A stretch of DNA of 64,000 nt from an uncultured Clostridia bacterium (GTDB taxonomy: Bacteria > Bacillota > Clostridia > Christensenellales > UBA1242), in the NCBI GenBank assembly GCA_934754355.1, contig CAKVID010000006.1, positions 2,004-66,003 of the forward strand, in the 5' to 3' direction. Every line of letters starts with the position of its first letter. Position 1 is the first letter of the stretch. A program made the position numbers and the translations under genes. Below, piece by piece: positions 3,648-15,192 of this stretch. The notes under the pieces are model-generated. The model was not told where the DNA came from. It ran no database searches and worked only from the letters and a program-made list of their open reading frames with translations.

Positions 3648-5441
3648 TTATTCTACTGTTACGCTTTTTGCTAAATTTCTTGGTTTATCTGGATTGATGC
3701 CTTTGGTTGTTGATGTATAATATGCAAGCCATTGAAAGAATTTGATAGATGTCATAGGCATGATGTCTTCGCCCAAGTCATCTAAGTGAATATTTAAGTA
3801 GATATCATGTAATTTGTCTTGACTTATGTCTAGATTTGATACAACTACAATTTTGGCACCCCTAGCATATGCTTCGTGTGCTGCGTTTAGTGTTTTGTCT
3901 AGCAAATGTTTTTCGGTGGCTACTACAAATAAAATTGTATCGCTATCTACAAGTGCAAGAAATCCGTGTTTTAATTCTCCAGAAGGGTAAGCAGATGAAT
4001 TGATATAAGTTATTTCTTTCAATTTCAAACTTGCTTCTTCGGCTGTGATATAATCGGTGTCTCTGCCAATAAAGAATACATTGCTTGCAGAAGTAAGTTT
4101 AGTGGATAATTCTTTGATTTGGTCAAAGTAATTATCTGATGTCAATAAAAATTTGGATAGATTTTCTAGTGCCTTGTAATCTTTATTAAATTTAATTGTG
4201 GCTAGATAATTGGCAAATAAATATAATACAGAGATTTGAGCGGTATAGGCTTTGGTTGATGCTACGGCAAGTTCAGGTCCTGCACAAACAGGGAATATAT
4301 AATCACTATTTTTGGCAAGTGTGCTATATAGTACATTAGTTAAAGCGATTGTGTGAGTATTATTTGCTTTAACAATTTCTAATGCTCCCAAAGTATCTGC
4401 AGTCTCTCCGCTTTGGCTTACAAATATGGCTAAAGTATCTTTATCTATTATTGGATTGGAGTATCTAAATTCGCTAGCGATGTATGCAGAAGATTTAATT
4501 CTTGCATATTTTTCTAACATTCTGGCACCCATCAATGCTGCGTGATAGGCTGTTCCACAACCAATTAAAATTATATTATTTATGCTTTCTAATTCATTGG
4601 TGTTTAATTTCTCGAATACTTTGCTATCTTGGTAAGTTGAAATTAATCTATTGATTACATCTTTTTCCTGAGATATCTCTTTTTGCATAAAATGACTATA
4701 ATTTCCAAGTCCAGCATCTTCTACTTCAAAATTCATCTTGGTGGAAGTTTTGTCAATAGGTATAAGATTATTGTCAAAAAACTCTATTGTATTTTCAGTA
4801 ATGCGGGCATACTCTTTATTATTTAAGGTATAGTACTCAGTACATTTGCCTACAAAACATATGGGGTCGCTTGCTATATAATTGCCGTTACTTCCATATG
4901 CTACATATAGAGGGCTTTCATTTCTGGCTACACAAATCTCGTGGGGATTGTGTGTAGATATTACTGCTAAAGCGTAACTTCCTATTAGTTTATCACAAGC
5001 AAATTTAAGTGCTTCCAAACTATTATGTTTATTTGAAACTTGAAGTAAGTGAGCGATAGTTTCGGTGTCTGTTTCGCTCTTAAAATTAATATTGTGATTT
5101 TGAATTAAATCGTTTTTTAAGGGTAAGTAATTCTCTATAATTCCATTGTGAACAATTGCCCAATTTCCGTCTTGGCTTAAATGAGGGTGGGCGTTAATTG
5201 AATTTGCTTTGCCATGAGTTGCCCATCTAGTATGTGCTATACCGCATGAATTAGTAACGGGAAAACCTAATATGTTTTCAAGATTGCTAACAGCGCCTGC
5301 GCTTTTGATAACTTCAATACTATTATTATTAATGCAGGCTATTCCTGCTGAGTCGTAACCTCTATATTCTACTCCTTTGATCAATTGTAATAATTCTGTT
5401 TTTGAATTTTCTTTGCCTATATATCCTGCTATTCCACACAT
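3648..5441 (-). CDS. glmS: Glutamine--fructose-6-phosphate aminotransferase
   Basis: 597 aa with N-terminal MCGI(A)GY nucleophile Cys, two SIS domains and the canonical C-terminal ...KSVTVE. Confidence 0.97.
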   Translation of the reverse strand: MCGIAGYIGKENSKTELLQLIKGVEYRGYDSAGIACINNNSIEVIKSAGAVSNLENILGFPVTNSCGIAHTRWATHGKANSINAHPHLSQDGNWAIVHNGIIENYLPLKNDLIQNHNINFKSETDTETIAHLLQVSNKHNSLEALKFACDKLIGSYALAVISTHNPHEICVARNESPLYVAYGSNGNYIASDPICFVGKCTEYYTLNNKEYARITENTIEFFDNNLIPIDKTSTKMNFEVEDAGLGNYSHFMQKEISQEKDVINRLISTYQDSKVFEKLNTNELESINNIILIGCGTAYHAALMGARMLEKYARIKSSAYIASEFRYSNPIIDKDTLAIFVSQSGETADTLGALEIVKANNTHTIALTNVLYSTLAKNSDYIFPVCAGPELAVASTKAYTAQISVLYLFANYLATIKFNKDYKALENLSKFLLTSDNYFDQIKELSTKLTSASNVFFIGRDTDYITAEEASLKLKEITYINSSAYPSGELKHGFLALVDSDTILFVVATEKHLLDKTLNAAHEAYARGAKIVVVSNLDISQDKLHDIYLNIHLDDLGEDIMPMTSIKFFQWLAYYTSTTKGINPDKPRNLAKSVTVE

Positions 5442-5444
5442 ATT

Positions 5445-6761
5445 TTATTCTCCATCAATGTCATATACTATTTGTTCTATTTCTTTGGCGTGTTTGGTTG
5501 CGATATCCAAATCTTTGCATTCAACCATAATTCTTATTTTTGGTTCTGTGCCAGAGACTCTAACCATAATTCTTGCGTCGTCGCCTAGTTCTTTCTCAGT
5601 TTGGTCTACTTTATCCATAAGTTTGGCGCTGTTGATAATTTTGACTTTATCTGATACTATACAGTCTATATTGCATTGAGGGTATAAATTTGCGTGTGCA
5701 AGTATGCTTATTTTTTGTTTGGTTCTTACCATCATTTCAGCAATCTTGATGCCAGATAGAATGCCGTCTCCGGTGCTTGCAAATTCTCTGAAAATAATGT
5801 GTCCAGATTTTTCTCCACCAAGACTTAAGCCTTCTTCTTCCATTTTGGCAATTACATATTTGTCTCCAATGTCTGTGCGGATTAATTTGATGCCTTCTTT
5901 CTCCAAATCTTTTTCTAATCCCATATTAGTGTGTCTTGTGCCAACAACGGTGTTTTTGGCAAGTGCATTTTGGCTTTTTAAATATTTGGCAAGCATAAAA
6001 ATAATTACATCGCCGTCAATAATATTACCGTTTTCGTCACAAGCGATAATTCTATCTGCATCGCCATCGAATGCAAAACCAACATCTGCTTTGTATTTTC
6101 TGACTGCTTTCGCCATAACTTCTGGGTGCATAGAACCGCAATTGTCATTTATGAATGCACCCTCGTTGCGACAATTGGTTGCAATAACTTTGGCTCCCAA
6201 TGCTCGGAATACGGCAGGAGCAATTTTGTGAGCAGCGCCATTGCTACCATCTAATAAGATTGTAAGCGAAGACAAATCTTCTTTGCAACAACTGATTAAA
6301 TGTTCTTCGTATAATTTAACCAAAGAGAAGTCTTGACTATAATTACCAATATTAGGATAGTCGTTGTGTGTTTCATGAATAAATTTTCTCTCTAATGCTT
6401 CTTCTTTTTTATCGCTTAATTTAATTCCGTTAGTGTCAAATATTTTAATTCCGTTATATTCCGCTGGATTGTGTGAAGCACTTACGACTGCTCCGAAATC
6501 TACGCTGGTTTTCTCTGTGATATATGCAATACCTGGCGTTGTGCAAACACCTATATCTATTACATCTGCTCCTGCGGTCATTGCTCCTGTGGAAAATGCT
6601 GAGGTTAGAAAGGTTCTAGTTGTACGAGTGTCACCTCCAATTAATATTGTTGCTTTGTCTTTGTTTGTAGCAACAGCATTGCCACATTTGAATGCTAAAT
6701 CGTATGTAAGATAGTTATTAACAACTCCTCTTATTCCGTCTGTTCCAAAAAAAACTCCCAT
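5445..6761 (-). CDS. glmM: Phosphoglucosamine mutase
   Basis: 438 aa with the active-site SASHNPAEYNGIK and the metal loop FDGDADR. It lies 3 nt upstream of glmS. Confidence 0.95.
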   Translation of the reverse strand: MGVFFGTDGIRGVVNNYLTYDLAFKCGNAVATNKDKATILIGGDTRTTRTFLTSAFSTGAMTAGADVIDIGVCTTPGIAYITEKTSVDFGAVVSASHNPAEYNGIKIFDTNGIKLSDKKEEALERKFIHETHNDYPNIGNYSQDFSLVKLYEEHLISCCKEDLSSLTILLDGSNGAAHKIAPAVFRALGAKVIATNCRNEGAFINDNCGSMHPEVMAKAVRKYKADVGFAFDGDADRIIACDENGNIIDGDVIIFMLAKYLKSQNALAKNTVVGTRHTNMGLEKDLEKEGIKLIRTDIGDKYVIAKMEEEGLSLGGEKSGHIIFREFASTGDGILSGIKIAEMMVRTKQKISILAHANLYPQCNIDCIVSDKVKIINSAKLMDKVDQTEKELGDDARIMVRVSGTEPKIRIMVECKDLDIATKHAKEIEQIVYDIDGE

Positions 6762-6763
6762 TT

Positions 6764-7402
6764 TTATTTTATCTCCGTTTTATATTTTTTTGCATACTCA
6801 GTTTTAACTGTTTCTCTAACTCTTCCTATAACAAAATCAAATGGATTTGTGTCTATGGTGATAGTTGTGCCTGCGCAAATGTAACTGTCATCGGCAATAT
6901 TTACAGGGGCAACTACATTTACATTGCTTCCGATAAAACAATTGTTGCCAACTTTTGACCTTGATTTGCTTTTGCCGTTGTAATTAACAAATATTGCACC
7001 GCAACCAATGTTACAATCTTTGCCAATGTCTGCATCTCCTATGTATGCTAGATGTGAAGCCTTGCTTCCATCTCCAATATTTGAATTCTTAATTTCTACA
7101 AAGTTGCCAATTTTGCAATTGCTTCCAATAGTGCTATTTGGCCTAAGTCTAGAGAATGGACCAATGCTAGTTTTTTCTGCGATTGTACTGGCTTCTATGT
7201 AACTATGGTCAATTGTGCAATCATTAGATACTCTGCAATCAACTATGTAATTATTAGGCATAAGTACAACATTGTCTCCAATTACTGTATTACCCTTAAT
7301 AATGTTATTTGGGTGAATAATTACATTTTTTCCAAATTGAACTGTATCATCTATGAATACAGTGTTTTCGCCAATTATTGTTGGCTGATTTTCTTCTTTC
7401 AT
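6764..7402 (-). CDS. Left-handed beta-helix acetyltransferase equivalent to the C-terminal (GlcN-1-P acetyltransferase) half of GlmU only
   Basis: 'NFVEIKNSNIGDGSKASHLAYIGDADIG..CNIG.G.I..NY.G..K....VG...FIGSN..VVAPV.I' matches the GlmU C-terminal domain. I place the start at the ATG at 7402, with AAAAAGGAG 8 nt upstream. There is no uridylyltransferase domain, because in-frame stops lie upstream of 7462. Confidence 0.8.
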   Translation of the reverse strand: MKEENQPTIIGENTVFIDDTVQFGKNVIIHPNNIIKGNTVIGDNVVLMPNNYIVDCRVSNDCTIDHSYIEASTIAEKTSIGPFSRLRPNSTIGSNCKIGNFVEIKNSNIGDGSKASHLAYIGDADIGKDCNIGCGAIFVNYNGKSKSRSKVGNNCFIGSNVNVVAPVNIADDSYICAGTTITIDTNPFDFVIGRVRETVKTEYAKKYKTEIK

Positions 7403-7900
7403 ATTTATAAACTCCTTTTTAGTTGCAATAATTATTATATATTTAACCATTATAAAAAGCAAATATAATGTATGAAAATTTCAAAATATTGTACCTGTTT
7501 TTAATAGTTTTTTAGTGATTTTGTATCTGTTTTACGAAATAAAGCCGTTTTTTATAAATTCATAATTTTAAAAAGTGATACCTCTTTTGTAAATATTTTA
7601 TGGTATTATTTTCCAAAATGTGTGTGTTTTGAAAAAATATTACATAATAACTTAATTTATTTGTTGTGTGGTTATTCTCTTTATAATATTCTGGATTTTT
7701 CTTATATTGTGACTGCTATTTGCAATAAAAAGAATATAAAATAAATTCGATTAAAGTTACACCATAAGATTAATTGGGTCTTGTCTTTGATTAACGATGT
7801 GTAACTCATGTCTTAAATTTAATAAATTAAAATTGTATTTTAGATTGATTGATTAAAAATTTAAGAGTGGTATTTGTAGATATTAATTGCTTGTGATAAT

Positions 7901-7954: not shown

Positions 7955-8383
7955 TTACATATTTTTTTGATTGTCAAGCAATTCTTGTAATTGTTCTATT
8001 GGTAGTGGTTGGTCTCTGAATTTATCTGGAACAGTATTTACAAGCCAACTTGGGTCAAACTTTGAAATAGGTATAGCATACTCAACTTGATTAGTTGTAT
8101 CTGTATCGTAGTTGTGAGGTTCATAATAACCTATCCCTCTGTGGAAAAGTAATTTTGTTCTGGGGATATCAAATGAACAGAAGTAAAATTCATTATCATA
8201 ATCTCTATATAAAACTCTTATGTCAAGTAATCCCGATAAATCTTTGAAAAAGTGTAAGTAGTGGGACTTACTGTAGCGATGGTTATTGAATGGTGTTCTA
8301 TGAAATTTACTTCCGATATCTTCGCTTTGACCGCTAGTGATTTTATTCAATTCTTCTAAACTTAGATATCTATAAACTAACAT
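7955..8383 (-). CDS. Hypothetical protein, 142 aa; possible small R-S-E type ADP-ribosyltransferase-like toxin
   Basis: The ordered motifs VYRY (aa 3-6), FCSF (about aa 68-71) and NQVEYAIP (about aa 98-105) resemble the aromatic-R / STS / QxE-phi-x-phi-P pattern of C3-like ARTs. This rests on motifs only. Confidence 0.3.
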   Translation of the reverse strand: MLVYRYLSLEELNKITSGQSEDIGSKFHRTPFNNHRYSKSHYLHFFKDLSGLLDIRVLYRDYDNEFYFCSFDIPRTKLLFHRGIGYYEPHNYDTDTTNQVEYAIPISKFDPSWLVNTVPDKFRDQPLPIEQLQELLDNQKNM

Positions 8384-8392
8384 TTTATTTGC

Positions 8393-9127
8393 CTACATAT
8401 TGAAGTCTTCAGGTAGAGAAATTCCAAGTTCTTCGTTGGGATAAGGGGATATTGCTCGAATATCTATATCTCTTTCGTCAATTGCAGACATTATACTACC
8501 ATATAAATCTACAACTGCATCTAGCATTCCATGTGCCAAAGAATAATACTTTAAATCTTGATTGCCTCTGCATTGCTCACGATGTTTGAATGCTGAAAAT
8601 TTGTAATCAAACAATGTGTCAAGTGATTTTTTATCGGCAAATTCTTGTAGAGAATTTCCTTCGCTGACTTTTTTATTTCTTATCTCTAATCTGTCTTTTA
8701 ATAATTTGGGTGCAACATGTTTTATAAAAAATTCGTATAAAGAATATTTGTCTTTAACAATATCTTCAGCGTTGAAATATTGATTTTCTAAATTTTGAGA
8801 TACAAATTCCTCAATAATTCTCTCTGGAAGATTGTTGTACTCATCAATTTGCTGTTCGTTATTGCCTAGAGGCAAATCAATAAAATCTCTATCTTTATTA
8901 GCAAGAGTAATTTTTCCAGAATATATGGCGTCATCTCCTACATATTGTGGCATTCCGGCATACACAAAATTGAAGGCTTCTTTGTAGTCTTTAATTCCGC
9001 AAGTTTTCATTTTTTTATTGAATTCAGTGTCGTAAGATTTCTTATCTATCGGCAAGTATCCATCGGCAATTGCAATTGCCATAATTAATGCGTTTTCGTT
9101 TTGAATATCTAAATCAGACTTTTTCAT
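8393..9127 (-). CDS. Hypothetical protein, about 244 aa, co-operonic with the 142-aa gene (9-nt gap)
   Basis: Long ORF with GGGGTGGGA 3-4 nt upstream of the ATG at 9127. The track's GTG at 9136 is probably too early. I recognised no domain. Confidence 0.6.
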   Translation of the reverse strand: MKKSDLDIQNENALIMAIAIADGYLPIDKKSYDTEFNKKMKTCGIKDYKEAFNFVYAGMPQYVGDDAIYSGKITLANKDRDFIDLPLGNNEQQIDEYNNLPERIIEEFVSQNLENQYFNAEDIVKDKYSLYEFFIKHVAPKLLKDRLEIRNKKVSEGNSLQEFADKKSLDTLFDYKFSAFKHREQCRGNQDLKYYSLAHGMLDAVVDLYGSIMSAIDERDIDIRAISPYPNEELGISLPEDFNM

Positions 9128-9345
9128 ATTTCCCACCCCAAATATTATTTATTATAAATTGTAACATATGAAATTTAAAAATTCAATAGGCTTTGACAAA
9201 ATACATTATTTTACTTTTTGAATTATGATTATAATGCGTCTAATTTATTATTGTGATTAATTATCTTATTAAAATGAATTATTCTATTGACAGTTTGTCT
9301 AAATATGTAGTAAAATGTAGGTAATTTATTCGTGGGGTGGTAGTT

Positions 9346-10305
9346 ATGAATTCTAAATTTCAATCTAATTTGAGAAAATTGGCTCAAAATTATTCTCAAA
9401 AACAAATCGCTATTAAAACGGGTTTTTCTCAATCTAGTATTAATAATTATTTATCTGGTAGTAGTGACCCGTCAATTCAATTTGTAATTGCCCTTAAAGA
9501 TGCTTTTGGAATAAGTGTAGATGACTTCTTGTTTTCAGATTTTCAAGTAGAAGATCAAGTGTCTTATGAGCAGTTCTTGGGTAATTATATTATATATTAT
9601 TACAATAATAGTTCATACAAAGGTGAGGTTCATACCAATATTACAAATACCCTTAATTATGGTGTGCTTAGTGTGTATAGGAAAGATGGCTTTGATGGGG
9701 ATATTAAAGTCTCGGCAACTTTTTTTAAAGATAAGATAAGTGCAGTAAAATTATTGAAATTGCTTAATTCAAGTGAAAATAGTGCTGATGATTTTTTCAA
9801 AAATGCAGAGAATGTGTACGATGGAGAAATTTCTTGCACTGATCAAAGTTTATTTTTTATACTTTCTAACAAAGATAATTTTGATAAGTGTTTTATAATA
9901 CTTAATAATCCTCCAACCAAACAAAAGTACATTGGTGGAGTTGGCACGGTTAATTCTATTGCTAGAGGAAGAGAACATAATCCTTGTGTGCAATTCATTA
10001 TTCTTTCCAAGAAGATAATTGATGTACCAGATGGAGAATTATATAATATCTTGAAATTTGAAGATTATACTGTAAGTCTGGATTATGCAATTAAAGATAC
10101 TATAGATTTATTCAAAAGATTGTATGCAGAAAAAAATGAGTTGTCTATAGAATTGAGTGAAACACAGAAACTAGCAATTGTAAGAAATAAATTAGAATAT
10201 TATTTTAATGATATTTTGAGTGCAAATACTTTCAGATTTGCCAAAGTTTCTAATAAAGAAGATGATGGAATTTATAAACTAATTAAGGAGGGAATTGATG
10301 TCTGA
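9346..10305 (+). CDS. XRE-family helix-turn-helix protein with an uncharacterised C-terminal domain of about 250 aa
   Basis: 'LRKLAQNYSQKQIAIKTGFSQSSINNYLSG...PSIQFVIALKDAFGISVDDFL' is a classic HTH_XRE. It is divergent from the 8393 operon and its end overlaps the next gene by 11 nt. Confidence 0.8.
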   Translation: MNSKFQSNLRKLAQNYSQKQIAIKTGFSQSSINNYLSGSSDPSIQFVIALKDAFGISVDDFLFSDFQVEDQVSYEQFLGNYIIYYYNNSSYKGEVHTNITNTLNYGVLSVYRKDGFDGDIKVSATFFKDKISAVKLLKLLNSSENSADDFFKNAENVYDGEISCTDQSLFFILSNKDNFDKCFIILNNPPTKQKYIGGVGTVNSIARGREHNPCVQFIILSKKIIDVPDGELYNILKFEDYTVSLDYAIKDTIDLFKRLYAEKNELSIELSETQKLAIVRNKLEYYFNDILSANTFRFAKVSNKEDDGIYKLIKEGIDV

Positions 10306-11728
10306 CTTAATTGATGAGAGATTTAATCTAATACTTGATAAAGCAAAACAAAATTATTTGCCTACAGATATAATTAGTAAAGCCTATCAGAAAGCAAGAA
10401 CTCTTCACAAAGAACAATTAAGAAAAGATGGAACTCCATATATTAGTCACCCTGTAGAAGTTGCGTTAATTCTAGCAAAATTAGATTTTGATGAGAATGT
10501 AATTTGCGGAGCATTGCTTCATGATACAATTGAAGATTGTGGATACACTCCTGAACAGATGAAAAAAGATTTCAATAGTGCAATTTTTGAATTGGTAGAT
10601 TGTGTAAGTGCAATTGACAATACAAAGTATGTTTTTGACAAAAACAATATATATGAAGACGAAAACTTTGTAAAATCATCTGCCGAAGAACAAACATTTA
10701 TTAAATTAATAAGTCTAGGCAAAAAGAACCCTTGTGGATTTGCAATAAAATTTGCAGATAGATTACACAATTTAAGAACGATAAATTGTTTCGATTATTC
10801 TAAGCAATTAGAGAAAGTGAGAGAGACGGAGAAATGGGTTATTCCAATTGCTAAGGCATTAAAATCGGAGTACTTCTATAGGGCTATTAAAAATGAATGC
10901 TTTAAGATTGTAAATAAATATAGTGGCAGGCAGTATTTTGAAGCGTATGAGAGTTATCATAATGCAAACAAAAAGACTATTGAGAAATTAAATATTGACT
11001 TGAAAGAAATATTTGCAGGAACGCCAATTACTACAATTAAAATTAAGAATGTTAGAGAGTATAAAGTCTTTGAAGATTTGAAGAGGATTAATAAATTTAT
11101 AGATATATCCCAAGCCTCTCAAGGACAAATTATAAGAGTTACAAATTATAATATATATTTACTTTACAAAGATGTAAGTCATACAACTGCTATTATGGAA
11201 GTTTTGGATAGTTTGTCTAGAACAAAGATGAAAGTTATTGATGCCAAGATTGGTGGATTTACAGATAAGGTGTATTTGCAATTTCAAGATAACTTCTATA
11301 ATAAATTCAATATTTACATAATGAGCGAGAGTGAATATCAGATAACCAAAGTTGGAACTCTTGATGGGCAAAATCTAGATAGAATTGATGAAGATAATAT
11401 TAACAATCTTGAAGAAGAATTAATCAAAATAAAAACTAGGTCTAATGAAGTTAAGTATATTGCAAAGAATAGTACCGTTTTGGATTTTGCATTTAAAATT
11501 CACAAAGATATCGGGTTTGCTTTCAAATACGCAATAATTAATGATGGTAAAACTAAATTTCCACCTTACACCAAAATTAATAATAATGATAAAGTGGAAA
11601 TAATTGTAGATAAAGATATCAATGGTAATTTGATTGTTAATGCTAAATTAAGATGGCTTGCATATGTTAATACCGAACTTGCCAAGAAAATACTTATCAA
11701 ATATTTTGAAGAAAAGTTAGTTCGATGA
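10295..11728 (+). CDS. RelA/SpoT-homologue with intact HD hydrolase domain, degenerate synthetase-like middle region and TGS domain (hydrolase-only RSH)
   Basis: HD motifs present: 'SHPVEVALILA...ALLHDTIEDCG' and 'FADRLHNLRTI'. TGS-like 'STVLDFAFKIHKDIGFAFKYAIINDGK...INNNDKVEI'. The middle region aligns by position with a SYNTH domain but lacks DxxGxR, GYxSxH and E-x-Q-x-R-T (it reads NYNIYLLY, GGFTDKVY and FNIYIMSESEY instead). Confidence 0.7.
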   Translation: MMSDLIDERFNLILDKAKQNYLPTDIISKAYQKARTLHKEQLRKDGTPYISHPVEVALILAKLDFDENVICGALLHDTIEDCGYTPEQMKKDFNSAIFELVDCVSAIDNTKYVFDKNNIYEDENFVKSSAEEQTFIKLISLGKKNPCGFAIKFADRLHNLRTINCFDYSKQLEKVRETEKWVIPIAKALKSEYFYRAIKNECFKIVNKYSGRQYFEAYESYHNANKKTIEKLNIDLKEIFAGTPITTIKIKNVREYKVFEDLKRINKFIDISQASQGQIIRVTNYNIYLLYKDVSHTTAIMEVLDSLSRTKMKVIDAKIGGFTDKVYLQFQDNFYNKFNIYIMSESEYQITKVGTLDGQNLDRIDEDNINNLEEELIKIKTRSNEVKYIAKNSTVLDFAFKIHKDIGFAFKYAIINDGKTKFPPYTKINNNDKVEIIVDKDINGNLIVNAKLRWLAYVNTELAKKILIKYFEEKLVR

Positions 11729-11743
11729 GGAAAGGAGAAAATT

Positions 11744-12229
11744 ATGAATTTAGTAGAAAAAGTAAAAACTTTAGCAAAAGATAATAAAGTATATCTTTAT
11801 TTTGATATGGACGGCACTTGTGTAGAATACAAAAGTGGGGAAATAGATTTGATTAAAGGGAATGCAAAAGATTTCTTCCTAACCAAAAGGCCATTATTTT
11901 CAATTCTTAAAATTATGGAAGATTTGGCAAATACAGAGAATGTAATTGTAGGGATATTATCTAATTGCTATTTTGATGAGCAGAAACAAGACAAAATTAC
12001 TTGGCTACAAAAATATGCACCATTTATTAAAAGAGAAAATATTAACATAATAGTGCTTAATAATGAGATTTACACTCAAGACACTAAGGATTATTTGAAG
12101 CCAAATTTACTTAAAAAATTACATAACGATACAACATATGTATATTTGATAGAAGATAACCATCAAATTTTGAAAGCAACAAGAAAAAGTGGACTAAATG
12201 GCGAACATATAAGCACACTTATTAGTTGA
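11744..12229 (+). CDS. HAD-superfamily phosphatase, NT5C (5'(3')-deoxyribonucleotidase)-like
   Basis: 161 aa with the motif I 'YLYFDMDGTCVEY' (DxDGT). The size and layout fit the small NT5C-type nucleotidases. It lies 15 nt after the RSH gene. Confidence 0.5.
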   Translation: MNLVEKVKTLAKDNKVYLYFDMDGTCVEYKSGEIDLIKGNAKDFFLTKRPLFSILKIMEDLANTENVIVGILSNCYFDEQKQDKITWLQKYAPFIKRENINIIVLNNEIYTQDTKDYLKPNLLKKLHNDTTYVYLIEDNHQILKATRKSGLNGEHISTLIS

Positions 12230-12303: not shown

Positions 12304-12339
12304 AAAAAAATTCCTTAAATTTTATTAAGGAATTTTTTT
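12304..12339. terminator. Bidirectional hairpin terminator
   Basis: aattcctta (12309-12317) pairs with taaggaatt (12326-12334), with an A-run on one side and a T-run on the other. Confidence 0.65.
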
Positions 12340-12468: not shown

Positions 12469-13377
12469 TTATTGTTCAAGCAAAGACATAAGCGCATTTT
12501 TTTCATCTTGGTCTATTTTTATATTATTTGCTATAAAATCTTGAATAGCACAGCCGACAGCTAAATCTTTATTAAAGTATTGTTTATACACATTTATATC
12601 ATAAAAATCGTCTTGAGATTTTCTTTGCTTTGTAAAAAATTCTAGTATTTTTCTTAAGACATAGAAATCTAGGTCGGGGTTATCCGTAAATAGCATTTCA
12701 TATATGAGCGAATTTATTTTTGTATAATTCCATTTCTTAATAAAATATTGCATTGTTTGATTTTCATAATCATCAACTGCGACTAGGCTTTGGCTACTAT
12801 TGTCTATAAAACATTTTTTGCCATTCATATCATAAAACATATCGTCATTTTCATTGATTTTGTAGTTGCCAAAGTCAATGAGATAAATTCCACCATCATA
12901 TACTATATTAGATTTTGTTAAATCTAATAGTCTTATACCTGCTTGACTTATTAGTTCAACATCATTTGCAAGAATGGATAATTCTTCAATAAAATGAGAC
13001 ATGGGGTCGTTTAATACATTTTTTGCATTGGATATGTATTTCATTGTAAACCCAACAAGTTTATCGTCTTGAAATAATTTTTGTTTAGGCATAAGAATTC
13101 TAGAAGTTTTCAGTGAAGCAAGATAATCTAATTCATCTGCTGTTTTATGTGTAAATCTGTAATTATCTCTAAAGATTTTATATGTTAGATTGTCATCGTG
13201 ATAAACAAGCACTTCTGAACCGTCAGAACTTAATAAATTTAAAGTATCGATATCAATTTTTTGACCGTCATCTGTAACAAGATTGCCTTGTGTTAACACA
13301 TCTTTATTTTCTTCGTTTTGCGTCTTGTGCCATTCATTAAATTTTAAAACTTCATTTTTAATGTCATCGGTTAACAT
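12469..13377 (-). CDS. Protein-kinase-like fold protein (ePK-like catalytic loop and DFG)
   Basis: 302 aa. 'LLDLTKSNIVYDGG.IYLIDFGN' corresponds to the (H)RDLKxxN catalytic loop plus DFG. 'LTYKIFR' is a candidate VAIK lysine strand. RBS AAGGAA lies upstream of the ATG at 13377. Confidence 0.55.
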   Translation of the reverse strand: MLTDDIKNEVLKFNEWHKTQNEENKDVLTQGNLVTDDGQKIDIDTLNLLSSDGSEVLVYHDDNLTYKIFRDNYRFTHKTADELDYLASLKTSRILMPKQKLFQDDKLVGFTMKYISNAKNVLNDPMSHFIEELSILANDVELISQAGIRLLDLTKSNIVYDGGIYLIDFGNYKINENDDMFYDMNGKKCFIDNSSQSLVAVDDYENQTMQYFIKKWNYTKINSLIYEMLFTDNPDLDFYVLRKILEFFTKQRKSQDDFYDINVYKQYFNKDLAVGCAIQDFIANNIKIDQDEKNALMSLLEQ

Positions 13378-13411: not shown

Positions 13412-13522
13412 GCGGGAGAGTAATCTAAATATCTCGTGTGGAAGCACGAGTACAAAGCGGAACGCGGGTTCGTGAGTGAAACTCACATGAGATGAAATCT
13501 CATAAACTCCCGCAATAAGAAG
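13412..13522 (-). ncRNA. Copy A of a ~107-nt structured repeat (multi-hairpin, closed by GCGGGAG/CTCCCGC); 5' leader of the kinase-like gene
   Basis: Nearly identical to 13843-13949. Hairpins are CTCGTG/CACGAG, GAAC/GTTC, GTGAG/CTCAC and ATGAGAT/ATCTCAT. It lies between the minus-strand promoter (13530-13558) and the start codon at 13377. Strand is assigned from the promoter and gene context. Confidence 0.5.
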
Positions 13523-13558: not shown

Positions 13559-13804
13559 TATTTATTCTAAAATAAACAAGTGAGACTAATTTTTAATGAT
13601 ATTGGCGTTGCCAATGATATTGACCGAGGGCAATGAAATTACTCACTTCGTTTGTAATGATATAAAATTGAACCTTTACTTTTGTACTAGCAAAAATATC
13701 GTTGCGTAGCAATATCATTCGCATTAGCGAATATCTCTGAAACGTAAGGATCAATTTCATTGTAAACAAAAAGAAAAGCCAATAAGACTTTCCTTCTTGT
13801 TTAC

Positions 13805-13824
13805 TTGGTGGACGTGGCGGGAGT
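13805..13824 (-). repeat. Direct duplicate of the last 20 nt of the tmRNA gene (att-like scar)
   Basis: tggtggacgtggcgggagtt at 13805-13824 is identical to 14004-14023. In RNA sense this is AACTCCCGCCACGTCCACCA, the 3' T-stem plus acceptor plus CCA. Both copies have the same orientation. Confidence 0.85.
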
Positions 13825-13842
13825 TGTCTATTTAGATACTCT

Positions 13843-13949
13843 GGGAGTAATCTAAATATCTCGTGTGGAAGCACGAGTACAAAGCGGAACGCGGGTTCGT
13901 GAGTAAAACTCACATGAGATGAAATCTCATAAACTCCCGCAATAAGAAG
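13843..13949 (-). repeat. Copy B of the ~107-nt structured repeat (an extended form starts at 13818)
   Basis: Differs from copy A by one loop substitution (gtgagtGaaactcac vs gtgagtAaaactcac). It also has an extra TATTTAGAT/ATCTAAATA hairpin between two GGGAG direct repeats. The closing stem can use GCGGGAG at 13818-13824. Confidence 0.7.
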
Positions 13950-14003: not shown

Positions 14004-14368
14004 TGGTGGACGTGGCGGGAGTTGAACCCGCGTCCATATATCCTGCAAACAACTTTCTACATAATTAGTTGCATTTTATTTAGAGTGGTGGAGAATATAT
14101 ACTTGCAACAAAACTCTATTCTCACCGCACAAAAATTTAGTTACAAAGTTGCCTTTGTGCCAACAAATTTTGCACCGCTATTTAATTTGATGCTTGCTTT
14201 TGACCAGTAGCGAAATCAAGGCAAACACGCTCTACTGCTAAACTTACGCAGCTAAAGCAAGTTCAGATTTACTATCTGCAGTTAAATTTAATTTTGAACC
14301 TATAACGCAGTTCAACCGTTATGCTTTTTTGTTCACACTAGAGTATATGTCGAAACCAATACACGCCC
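14004..14368 (-). ncRNA. ssrA: tmRNA (transfer-messenger RNA)
   Basis: The 5' GGGCGUG pairs with the 3' CACGUCC-ACCA, including G3-U. The 5' region has GGUUUCGACA. The T-arm is GCGGGUUCAACUCCCGC. An internal tag frame at 14279-14244 reads GCA...GCG TAA = ADSKSELALAA*. It lies immediately downstream of smpB. Confidence 0.93.
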
Positions 14369-14374
14369 ATAAAA

Positions 14375-14821
14375 TTATCTGTACTTTTTTAGTTCTCGCT
14401 CGGTTTCTCTCTTGATATCTTTCTCTGCCAATGTCTTCTTTTTGTCGTATAAATGTTTGCCTTTGGCAAGAGCAATTTCAATTTTTATTAGGTTGTCTTT
14501 AAGATATATCTTAAGAGGAACACAGGTAAAGCCTTTTTCTTGGGTTTTACTAATTAATTTGGCAATTTCGCTAGAGTTAAGAAGCAATTTTCTACTTCTT
14601 TTCTCATCTAATTTGTCTATAGTTGCATCTTTGTAATTAGAGATATGCATATTCTTTATAAATGCTTCATTGTGGCTAAATGTGATGAAACTATCTTTGA
14701 GATTAGTATGTCCAAGTCTTATAGACTTAACTTCACTTCCTGCAAGTACAATTCCTGCTTCAAAAGTAGATATGATGAAATAATCAAAATAGGCTTTCTT
14801 GTTGGTAGCAATAATTTTCAT
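14375..14821 (-). CDS. smpB: SsrA-binding protein
   Basis: 'KIIATNKKAYFDYFI...GSEVKS.R' is the typical SmpB N-terminus. The start is at 14821, with AAAGGAG 7 nt upstream. Confidence 0.93.
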   Translation of the reverse strand: MKIIATNKKAYFDYFIISTFEAGIVLAGSEVKSIRLGHTNLKDSFITFSHNEAFIKNMHISNYKDATIDKLDEKRSRKLLLNSSEIAKLISKTQEKGFTCVPLKIYLKDNLIKIEIALAKGKHLYDKKKTLAEKDIKRETERELKKYR

Positions 14822-15192
14822 TTTTATCTCCTTTATTTTGCAGTAATTAGATTTTAACACACTTGATGATTTTTTTCAATGAGATTGATGATTTTTTATT
14901 AAAATTAATAAAGATTTGTGTAAAAATAATTAACTTTTTTTGAAATAGGTATTGAAAAATAATGCAAAATAGTATAAACTAATATTGCTTTTGACGCATA
15001 TTTTGCAAAAAAATGTGAATTTTATTCCAAAAAGTATTCAAATGTTTTGCAAAATATTGTATAATATATATAATCTAAAATATAGATGAAATTCAATTTT
15101 AGATTGTACATGCTAAAATTTTGATATTATAGTCAGACTACATGGTGGGTAGTTTGCAAAATTAAAATTAGTTTGAAAGTGAGGGGTATTTT

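Follow-up and report, generated by a model that had tools for sequence, protein, structure and literature searches.

Plant RSH1 is a long RelA/SpoT homologue (RSH) that works as a hydrolase, its synthetase being inactivated. In the Moraxellaceae, SpoT of Acinetobacter is a hydrolase-only protein ([Hs]) acting beside a synthetase-only RelA ([hS]); its pseudo-synthetase (pseudo-SYNTH), Core and TGS domains hold the HD domain in the active state, the TGS being a scaffold unable to bind tRNA, and its helical, ZFD and RRM/ACT domains tune hydrolysis (PMC9974481). RshC[HS], which is confined to six Bacillus strains, is truncated one helix past the TGS domain (PMC3153485). Here we describe XRE-RSH, a previously undescribed long-RSH variant of the [Hs] type, which is truncated past the TGS and has an obligate XRE-domain partner. 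It was identified in 64,000 nt of chromosomal DNA (30% G+C) of an uncultured Clostridia bacterium (contig CAKVID010000006.1; this whole stretch is hereafter called the window), whose relatives are labelled as uncultured Christensenellales or 'Candidatus Onthoplasma'-like gut Clostridia. In the reading that we favour, to which we give a probability of roughly 55%, the truncated RSH and its XRE partner form, as a chromosomal two-gene module, the part of a split stringent response that degrades alarmones.

The XRE-RSH pair of the window

The XRE-family protein (319 aa) is encoded at positions 9346..10305 of the plus strand, and the RSH (476 aa) at 10298..11728 of the same strand. The XRE start at ATG 9346 agrees with the initial annotation. 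For the RSH, the likely start is ATG 10298 and not TTG 10295; a Shine-Dalgarno sequence, AAGGAGG, lies at 10286, embedded in the XRE codons K-E-G, and the gene calls of public assemblies, which also give a 476-aa RSH, are in line with this start. The RSH start and the XRE stop overlap by 8 nt (10298..10305, plus strand, ATGTCTGA), and overlap or near-abutment of the two genes is kept across loci. A sigma-70-type promoter (9287..9316, plus strand; TTGACA and TAAAAT separated by 18 nt, 11/12 consensus match) is located 30 nt 5' of the XRE ATG. In a survey of one genome per species (GTDB), which yielded 62 loci, 58 of them with upstream DNA, the TTGACA -35 box was the most enriched 6-mer 5' of the XRE gene (58 species loci).

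Pfam recognizes two domains in the RSH, HD_4 (residues 30–180, E 6e-22) and TGS (residues 377–437, E 6e-12), and no match to RelA_SpoT (PF04607) was obtained from this library even at E 0.01; the NCBIfam spoT_relA model matches the N-terminal third only, far under its cut-off. Counted from TTG 10295, the domain borders on the plus strand are at about nt 10382–10834 (HD), 10877–11353 (pseudo-SYNTH), 11354–11422 (Core-like linker), 11423–11605 (TGS) and 11654–11722 (terminal helix). The protein ends about 30 aa, i.e. one helix, past the TGS, so that the helical, ZFD/CC and ACT/RRM regions are missing, and this end point is shared by the whole family of about 475-aa proteins to which it belongs.

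The HD hydrolase site is intact. Residues R43, H52, H76, D77, E80, D81, D155, R156 and N159 are present, being invariant or at least 90% conserved in the family, and form the signature R43, H52, H76-D77, E80-D81, D155-R156-L-H-N159; in RelSeq numbering, the metal-binding and catalytic residues of this domain are R44, H53, H77-D78, E81-D82, D144 and N148. The HD..ED and DRLxN motifs are kept in all 57 full-length proteins of the clade (from 62 species). In a PDB sequence search the best matches were the HD domains of Rel/RelA (E 1e-30 to 1e-18), with small alarmone hydrolases (SAHs) scoring much weaker (1e-12), and the nearest non-family kin of this HD domain is the HD of full-length Rel.

The middle of the protein has had a different fate. 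MAFFT alignment with 10 canonical Rels showed that all catalytic and substrate-binding positions of the four SYNTH motifs are replaced family-wide (G240 by I, R241 by K, K243 by V, S247 by K, K251 by D, D264 by T or A, R269 by Y, Y308 by F, S310 by D or G, H312 by V, E324 by N, Q326 by Y and R328 by M), with the hydrophobic pattern of the region retained. A regular expression for the SYNTH motifs matched the canonical Rels and no family member. The AlphaFold model of the RSH, built on a 71-sequence alignment, is confident (predicted local distance difference test, pLDDT, 91.4; predicted template modelling score, pTM, 0.84). Its top Foldseek match is full-length SpoT of A. baumannii (7qpr, E 5e-22), the N-terminal halves of Rels align to it over about 360 columns (TM up to 0.76), and its middle domain also matches the small synthetase RelP; because of these matches, the nucleotidyltransferase (SYNTH) fold is taken as kept at residues ~195–353. 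A retained fold, together with the absence of a PF04607 match and the loss of the catalytic motifs, therefore identifies this region as a pseudo-SYNTH. Mean pairwise identity in the family is highest in HD and TGS (44–45%) and lowest in the pseudo-SYNTH (22%), and the TGS motif TxLDFAFxxH is conserved. Judged by its sequence, the RSH is a hydrolase-competent, synthetase-incompetent long RSH.

The XRE protein, of which a 100%-identical 319-aa copy is held in the database, carries an N-terminal helix-turn-helix (HTH) domain (nt 9370–9528; Pfam HTH_3, residues 12–64, E 1e-10) and a C-terminal domain of about 250 aa (nt ~9553–10302). For the latter, no match was found in Pfam, NCBIfam, PHROGs, PADLOC, PDB profiles or BFVD, where only the HTH was hit. 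Across the family, from which 426 partner proteins were recovered, the partner measures about 320–380 aa and combines a Cro/C1 HTH with the ~250-aa domain, in which three motifs are invariant (YYYNNxSYKGEVH, NPPxxxxYxGGxGxxNxxxRGREHNPC and FRFxKxSNxxDD). The AlphaFold model of the XRE protein is of moderate quality (pLDDT 72), and its segments under pLDDT 50 (residues 89–100, 207–213 and 291–311) are the sites of the invariant motifs; we infer that they may be binding surfaces that become ordered only by a partner or a ligand. A lipocalin/FABP/LolA-like fold was considered for the C-terminal domain, and given the weak PDB Foldseek matches (E about 1e-2, TM about 0.4) no fold was assigned. TGATA-N(3-5)-TATCA palindromes occur 5' of the -35 box in 4 of the 58 loci (L008, L018, L036 and L045) versus ~0.6 expected, and TGATAA-type 6-mers are enriched about 2-fold 5' of the XRE gene. 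With 4/58 promoters, this is too weak for the palindrome to be called the XRE operator.

Compared with the described systems, the RSH resembles SpoT[Hs] most: both are long RSHs in which an apparently active HD is joined to a dead pseudo-SYNTH and a TGS, SpoT gives the best Foldseek match, and an [hS] Rel companion has its analogue in an ortholog on the contig of another locus (see below). In contrast to SpoT, the window RSH stops about 30 aa past the TGS and has no helical, ZFD, RRM or ACT region, belongs to Clostridia and not to Proteobacteria, and has an obligate XRE partner gene, which is undescribed for SpoT. RshC shares with it the point of truncation (PMC3153485) and the character of a second, divergent long RSH beside Rel; it is, however, an [HS] protein with a recognizable SYNTH, whereas the window RSH has no PF04607 match and replaced catalytic residues, and no XRE partner has been reported for RshC. 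The SAHs (Mesh1, RelH, PaSpo and SAH antitoxins) have the same HD_4-type 3'-pyrophosphohydrolase fold and catalytic residues, but they are single-domain proteins of ~180–200 aa. The window RSH, with 476 aa, three domains including pseudo-SYNTH and TGS, an HD nearer to that of Rel, and no adjoining toxic synthetase in the window or in 61 of the 62 loci, falls outside the SAH antitoxins. Plant RSH1 differs in keeping a recognizable SYNTH and a TGS/ACT tail, in being a eukaryotic plastid protein and in having no XRE partner. The XRE protein shares an N-terminal Cro/C1-type HTH with XRE regulators carrying C-terminal sensor domains (RstR/SinR/ImmR-like), but its 250-aa domain is matchless, there is no ImmA/IrrE-type protease partner and the partner is always an RSH.

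Several points of the initial annotation were confirmed by these analyses. It had described a long RSH with intact HD and TGS and without ZFD/ACT, in a layout that is not standard for the stringent response and that indeed differs from the standard Rel neighbourhood. The loss of the synthetase motifs, which it had read by eye, is no product of misalignment. Translational coupling to an XRE protein with an unmatched ~250-aa C-terminal domain also stood, although the overlap measures 8 nt and not 11.

Strict pairing, genomic context and a probable complementary Rel

The RSH family comprises more than 120 clusters at 59–91% identity, and a library of 50%-identity representatives contains ~110 proteins at E<1e-30, which are mostly family members with a few canonical Rels. 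HD_4 and TGS without SYNTH were found in every family member checked (10 by Pfam and 131 full-length representatives by motif regular expression), and some members have N- or C-terminal extensions. The proteins are currently annotated merely as 'HD domain-containing protein' and 'helix-turn-helix transcriptional regulator'. No account of the XRE-RSH family was found in the literature searched: the 2011 RSH classification has no such group (PMC3153485), and term searches in the text of its 2020 update gave no mention of RshC, XRE or TGS.

Pairing is strict. The XRE gene is located directly 5' of the RSH gene in 58/58 loci with upstream DNA, XRE identity follows RSH identity across loci (from 83% down to 38%), and a full-length XRE partner was also found 5' of distant RSHs at 36, 27, 28, 24 and 25% identity. 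The conserved unit consists of two genes, XRE and RSH, and not of three. Several 'dead HD' calls made by regular expression proved false on alignment check, motif variants being responsible. One contig, DWVI01000002.1 of 'Candidatus Onthoplasma faecipullorum', carries two paralogous XRE-RSH pairs 76 kb apart (L032 and L046), whose RSHs are 59% and 52% identical to that of the window.

The flanks of the pair vary between sub-clades and are stable within them. In 11 of the 62 loci (L002, L008, L012, L020, L023, L024, L027, L029, L030, L031 and L043) an aminoacyl-tRNA synthetase (aaRS) gene, encoding CysS, TrpS, Asp/Asn-RS, TyrS or a class II-like enzyme, directly adjoins the pair, and in L063 the pair is flanked by serS and leuS. 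Taking aaRS genes as ~1.5% of the genome, we estimate that well under one such adjacency would be expected by chance. In several loci the aaRS gene begins 1–10 nt downstream, which leaves no room for a T-box leader of its own and would therefore place it under the promoter of the module. Canonical rel genes of Firmicutes likewise sit among aaRS genes. Sporulation genes are also found among the flanks.

Links to mobile elements were sought as well. The family has no member in 2.9 million viral contigs, where the scan gave only single-domain hydrolases and canonical Rels; a viral origin was considered for the sole full-length match from a viral contig (L070), which the SYNTH hidden Markov model (HMM), built from 10 canonical Rels, identified as a canonical Rel. 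Phage and plasmid collections contain nothing that matches the XRE C-terminal domain, PADLOC matched only generic HTH models, and the SYNTH HMM found no SYNTH-domain open reading frame (ORF), and hence no toxic small alarmone synthetase (toxSAS), within 6 kb of the pair in 61 of the 62 loci. The pair is chromosomal, and its context argues for a housekeeping rather than a defence role.

The sole SYNTH match among the 62 loci is a second long RSH of locus L024, in which the XRE-paired RSH is 59% identical to that of the window. On the same contig, 5 kb downstream of the XRE-[Hs] pair, a recJ gene (783 aa) overlaps this long RSH (L024:10200-13420). Its HD is lost, with AYVLFQ in place of HD..ED and FATILYD in place of ADRLHN, and its SYNTH motifs (RQKHFYSVYKK, YDLVAMRV and NGYQS) are intact. 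All of its 27 closest database relatives (40–78% identity, many of them fragments) are pseudo-HD proteins with SYNTH intact wherever the region is present; seven full-length metagenome relatives of ~700 aa also combine a pseudo-HD with an intact SYNTH, and the recJ-linked relatives L159–L167 are of the same [hS] type. Among the recJ-linked relatives, one (L159, a gene split in two) showed RelA_AH, RIS and ACT domains. Since L024 holds both an XRE-[Hs] pair and a recJ-linked [hS] Rel, its sequence suggests that a RelA/SpoT-like division of labour arose independently in Clostridia, where at least part of the lineage would have Rel[hS] at the ancestral recJ-rel position and the XRE-coupled [Hs] elsewhere. 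An XRE-[Hs] pair was found near the [hS] Rel in 0/80 metagenome loci; the adjacency in L024 is for this reason incidental, and it still shows co-residence. The [hS] Rel loci and the window have no genes in common, and neither a canonical Rel nor a small alarmone synthetase was found by the SYNTH HMM among the six-frame ORFs of the window; a 720-aa ORF (57–2219), considered as a Rel candidate, was identified as an M60 peptidase. We infer that an [hS] Rel is present elsewhere in the window's own genome. Yet another type of RSH, the third, occupies the recJ-rel position of two loci (L156:6001-7431 and L158:6001-7437), where proteins of 476–478 aa combine a pseudo-HD, an intact SYNTH and a TGS end ([hS]-TGS); about 39 such proteins are among the matches listed.

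Role of the pair and rival explanations

If alarmone breakdown is the pair's share in a split stringent response, the RSH is most likely a Mn2+-dependent (p)ppGpp 3'-pyrophosphohydrolase, both activity and substrate being predictions. It would supply the alarmone breakdown lost by the recJ-linked, RelA-like [hS] Rel ortholog, and maker and breaker would share the stringent response in the manner of RelA and SpoT of Proteobacteria. By analogy with the hydrolase-only SpoT of Acinetobacter, the pseudo-SYNTH, the Core-like linker and the TGS are probably scaffold or regulatory elements. The XRE protein would be a dedicated, translationally coupled partner; with its HTH it probably controls the strong promoter from which it is itself expressed. 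It may also contact and bind the RSH, replacing the lost helical/ZFD/RRM region, or alternatively bind a small ligand via its invariant Gly/Arg-rich motifs. The HAD-superfamily phosphatase encoded next to the pair in the window may dephosphorylate nucleotide products; as a recent species-level passenger that is co-transcribed with the pair, it would stand outside the conserved mechanism.

Certain observations weigh against this reading. The RSH might act on (p)ppApp, pGpp or another substrate, and the model of the XRE C-terminal domain is only moderate (pLDDT 72). Co-residence of [Hs] and [hS] is known from one contig, L024, and the 64 kb of the window hold no synthetase. One genome has two paralogous pairs (L032, L046), and some distant members adjoin integrase/SprT, DUF4011 helicase or RloB-AAA_15 genes, giving these loci a variable or defence-island look. 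Finally, a distant subgroup (P0199, P0212, P0222 and P0249) carries H or R in place of D81 and G in place of the metal-binding D155, without having lost the TGS motif or the XRE partner; since its HD site is damaged with TGS and XRE kept, the core function of the family may not be hydrolysis. At the locus of one subgroup member (L243:2953-8013, P0212), XRE and RSH overlap by 20 nt, a gene for an 853-aa pentapeptide-repeat protein lies 11 nt 3' of the RSH, and RloB and AAA_15/21 genes are near.

This damaged subgroup is the natural starting point for another explanation, that the RSH is a sensor which binds alarmone in its HD pocket and/or uncharged tRNA through its TGS and controls DNA binding by the XRE protein, thereby passing starvation signals straight on to transcription; hydrolysis would be secondary or, in some lineages, lost. 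Within the family the TGS motif xxTxLDFAFxIHxxxG is the most universally kept, even in the subgroup with the damaged HD and an XRE partner; the strict, translationally coupled pairing extends down to 24% identity, the XRE C-terminal domain with its invariant Gly/Arg-rich motifs is conserved as much as the enzyme, and aaRS genes 1–10 nt downstream would fall under the module's promoter. We nevertheless regard it as unlikely, as the full catalytic HD set in 57/57 proteins of the window's own clade argues for real turnover, and no operator was established, TGATA-N-TATCA being found in only 4/58 promoters. The TGS also invites a role in tRNA-end repair, in which it would dock the 3' CCA of tRNA while the HD strips the 3'-pyrophosphate made by CapRel/FaRel2-type toxSAS, free alarmones not being degraded. 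The DFAxxIH motif of the TGS touches the CCA end of tRNA in RelA/Rel-ribosome structures, and the window RSH keeps this motif next to an intact HD of the alarmone-3'-pyrophosphohydrolase type; the pair is, moreover, enriched beside aaRS genes. SAH antitoxins are reported to undo tRNA pyrophosphorylation (PMC11782079). On the other side stand the missing toxSAS neighbour, the TGS of SpoT[Hs], which is a scaffold that cannot bind tRNA (PMC9974481), and the compact RSH model (pTM 0.84), which would suit a scaffold role, and tRNA-end repair seems to us hardly plausible.

A role in defence was raised by the initial annotation, in which the locus was suggested to be a signal-clearing or counter-defence module, possibly an antitoxin of a toxSAS system. 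In such a scheme the XRE protein would be an antitoxin or repressor, and the HD-TGS protein would serve either as effector or, by clearing alarmones, as an antidote to signals that are of the toxSAS type or set off by phages. The layout (HTH gene first, overlapping stop and start, a strong promoter of its own) does resemble a type II toxin-antitoxin operon, in the window the pair adjoins a variable region linked to the tmRNA gene, and the two pairs in one genome and the integrase, helicase and RloB neighbours mentioned above would fit as well. A defence function is all the same very unlikely given the absence of toxSAS or SYNTH ORFs near 61/62 loci, the absence of the family from viral contigs and of the XRE C-terminal domain from phages and plasmids, and a PADLOC result limited to the generic HTH. 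The 62 GTDB species genomes mostly have one pair per contig, in sub-clade-stable synteny with aaRS and sporulation flanks; XRE and RSH evolve slowly and in step, and the supposed antitoxin would be a 319-aa protein with a highly conserved domain. What survives of the initial proposal is signal clearing, a task consistent with a SpoT-like protein in housekeeping.

If the favoured reading holds, a bifunctional Rel would have been divided into [hS] and [Hs] proteins a second time, independently, which offers a natural comparison for the partitioning of activities among long RSHs. The same reading would also define a minimal hydrolase unit of HD, pseudo-SYNTH, Core and TGS, without the helical/ZFD/RRM region by which SpoT is tuned, and make the co-inherited XRE protein a candidate for a new RSH regulator or an alarmone-linked transcription factor of Gram-positive bacteria. 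A bolder and doubtful version is that Clostridia independently re-invented the RelA/SpoT split with a hydrolase that shed its ribosome-binding tail and an obligate XRE factor, bearing a domain not seen before, that reads alarmone or uncharged tRNA through the RSH and wires this signal to promoters, those of aaRS genes transcribed with the pair included. In Firmicutes, in which, to our knowledge, (p)ppGpp does not bind RNA polymerase, the stringent response would then reach transcription directly by way of a protein.

The HAD gene and the tmRNA-linked region

The pair is followed in the window by a gene for a HAD-superfamily phosphatase (161 aa, 11744..12229, plus strand), which begins 15 nt past the RSH stop, as already noted in the initial annotation, with its own Shine-Dalgarno sequence (AGGAG) and no terminator in between. 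The sequence thus predicts XRE, RSH and HAD to be one transcription unit. The three plus-strand genes sit between glmS-glmM-hexapeptide transferase on the left (3648–7462, minus strand) and tmRNA/SmpB on the right (14004–14860, minus strand). The unit is likely closed by an AT-rich 15-bp hairpin with A/T runs on both sides (12304..12339, both strands; minimum free energy, MFE, -13.5 kcal/mol on the plus and -15.6 kcal/mol on the minus strand, z -7.2 and -6.1), a bidirectional terminator shared with the convergent gene 12469–13377, which a GC-based terminator scan missed. Two genes (142 and 247 aa; 7955–9136, minus strand) diverge from the XRE gene and have no match in any library; L001 keeps both of them 5' of the pair, and L002, L007 and L011 keep the 247-aa one there.

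The HAD protein contains motif I (DxDxT, as FDMDGT) and is NT5C/PNKP-like at sub-threshold scores: 23.9 bits versus a cut-off of 24.8 for NT5C and 19.6 versus 22 for PNK3P (Pfam). The NT5C-like label given initially is therefore borne out by the motif and falls short of the cut-off. No phage match and no PDB sequence relative were found for it, and tblastn detected no ortholog in any of the 62 other species loci. Together with the convergent gene (12469–13377, minus strand), which encodes a 302-aa, weakly Bud32/RIO-type kinase-like protein (TIGR03724, E 2e-5; PDB 8unk, E 0.008; no Pfam match), it is confined to the species of the window and a relative at 91% identity. For these reasons the three-gene operon, initially proposed as a unit whose partners should be conserved, is a species-level arrangement; of the two supposed partners the XRE was retained throughout and the HAD was not.

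HAD-type genes nevertheless recur beside the pair in two other lineages, for which reason the suggested link to a HAD phosphatase is not wholly dismissed. The gene of a 370–376-aa protein with an N-terminal HAD_PNKP-like domain (motif GIDIDDT) adjoins the RSH in L032 (1 nt after it) and L044 (4-nt overlap). The C-terminal part of this protein shows, by eye, a HIT-like HVHFWVMP motif, and a shorter paralogue of that part is found a few genes on. In the eight loci of the distant sub-clade, a 269-aa HAD-type gene (motif I and GDGxxD) is divergent from XRE. Homology of the 161-aa HAD of the window with the L032/L044 gene was considered and rejected, there being no detectable similarity, and the recurrence is therefore non-orthologous. 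On a crude estimate, with HAD genes at ~0.5–1% of ORFs, three independent adjacencies exceed expectation, which we take as a lead only.

The HAD and Bud32-like genes are located between the conserved pair and a duplicated end of the tmRNA gene. The 3' terminus of this gene (14004–14368, minus strand) occurs twice, as an exact direct repeat of 21 nt, TGGTGGACGTGGCGGGAGTTG (13806–13826 and 14004–14024); no such repeat is expected by chance, and it looks like an att-like scar left when an element integrated at ssrA, an element of which the HAD and the 302-aa genes may be cargo. Two copies of a 105-nt repeat (13418–13522 and 13845–13949, 99% identical) flank the duplicated tmRNA end on either side. 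Between them, two sub-threshold matches to Gut-1 RNA (RF01706) lie on opposite strands (13578–13644, plus, 29.8 bits; 13691–13762, minus, 31 bits; gathering score 50). The 105-nt repeat matches no Rfam family at the gathering score and folds as a closed four-stem junction (MFE -34.9 kcal/mol, z -4.3).

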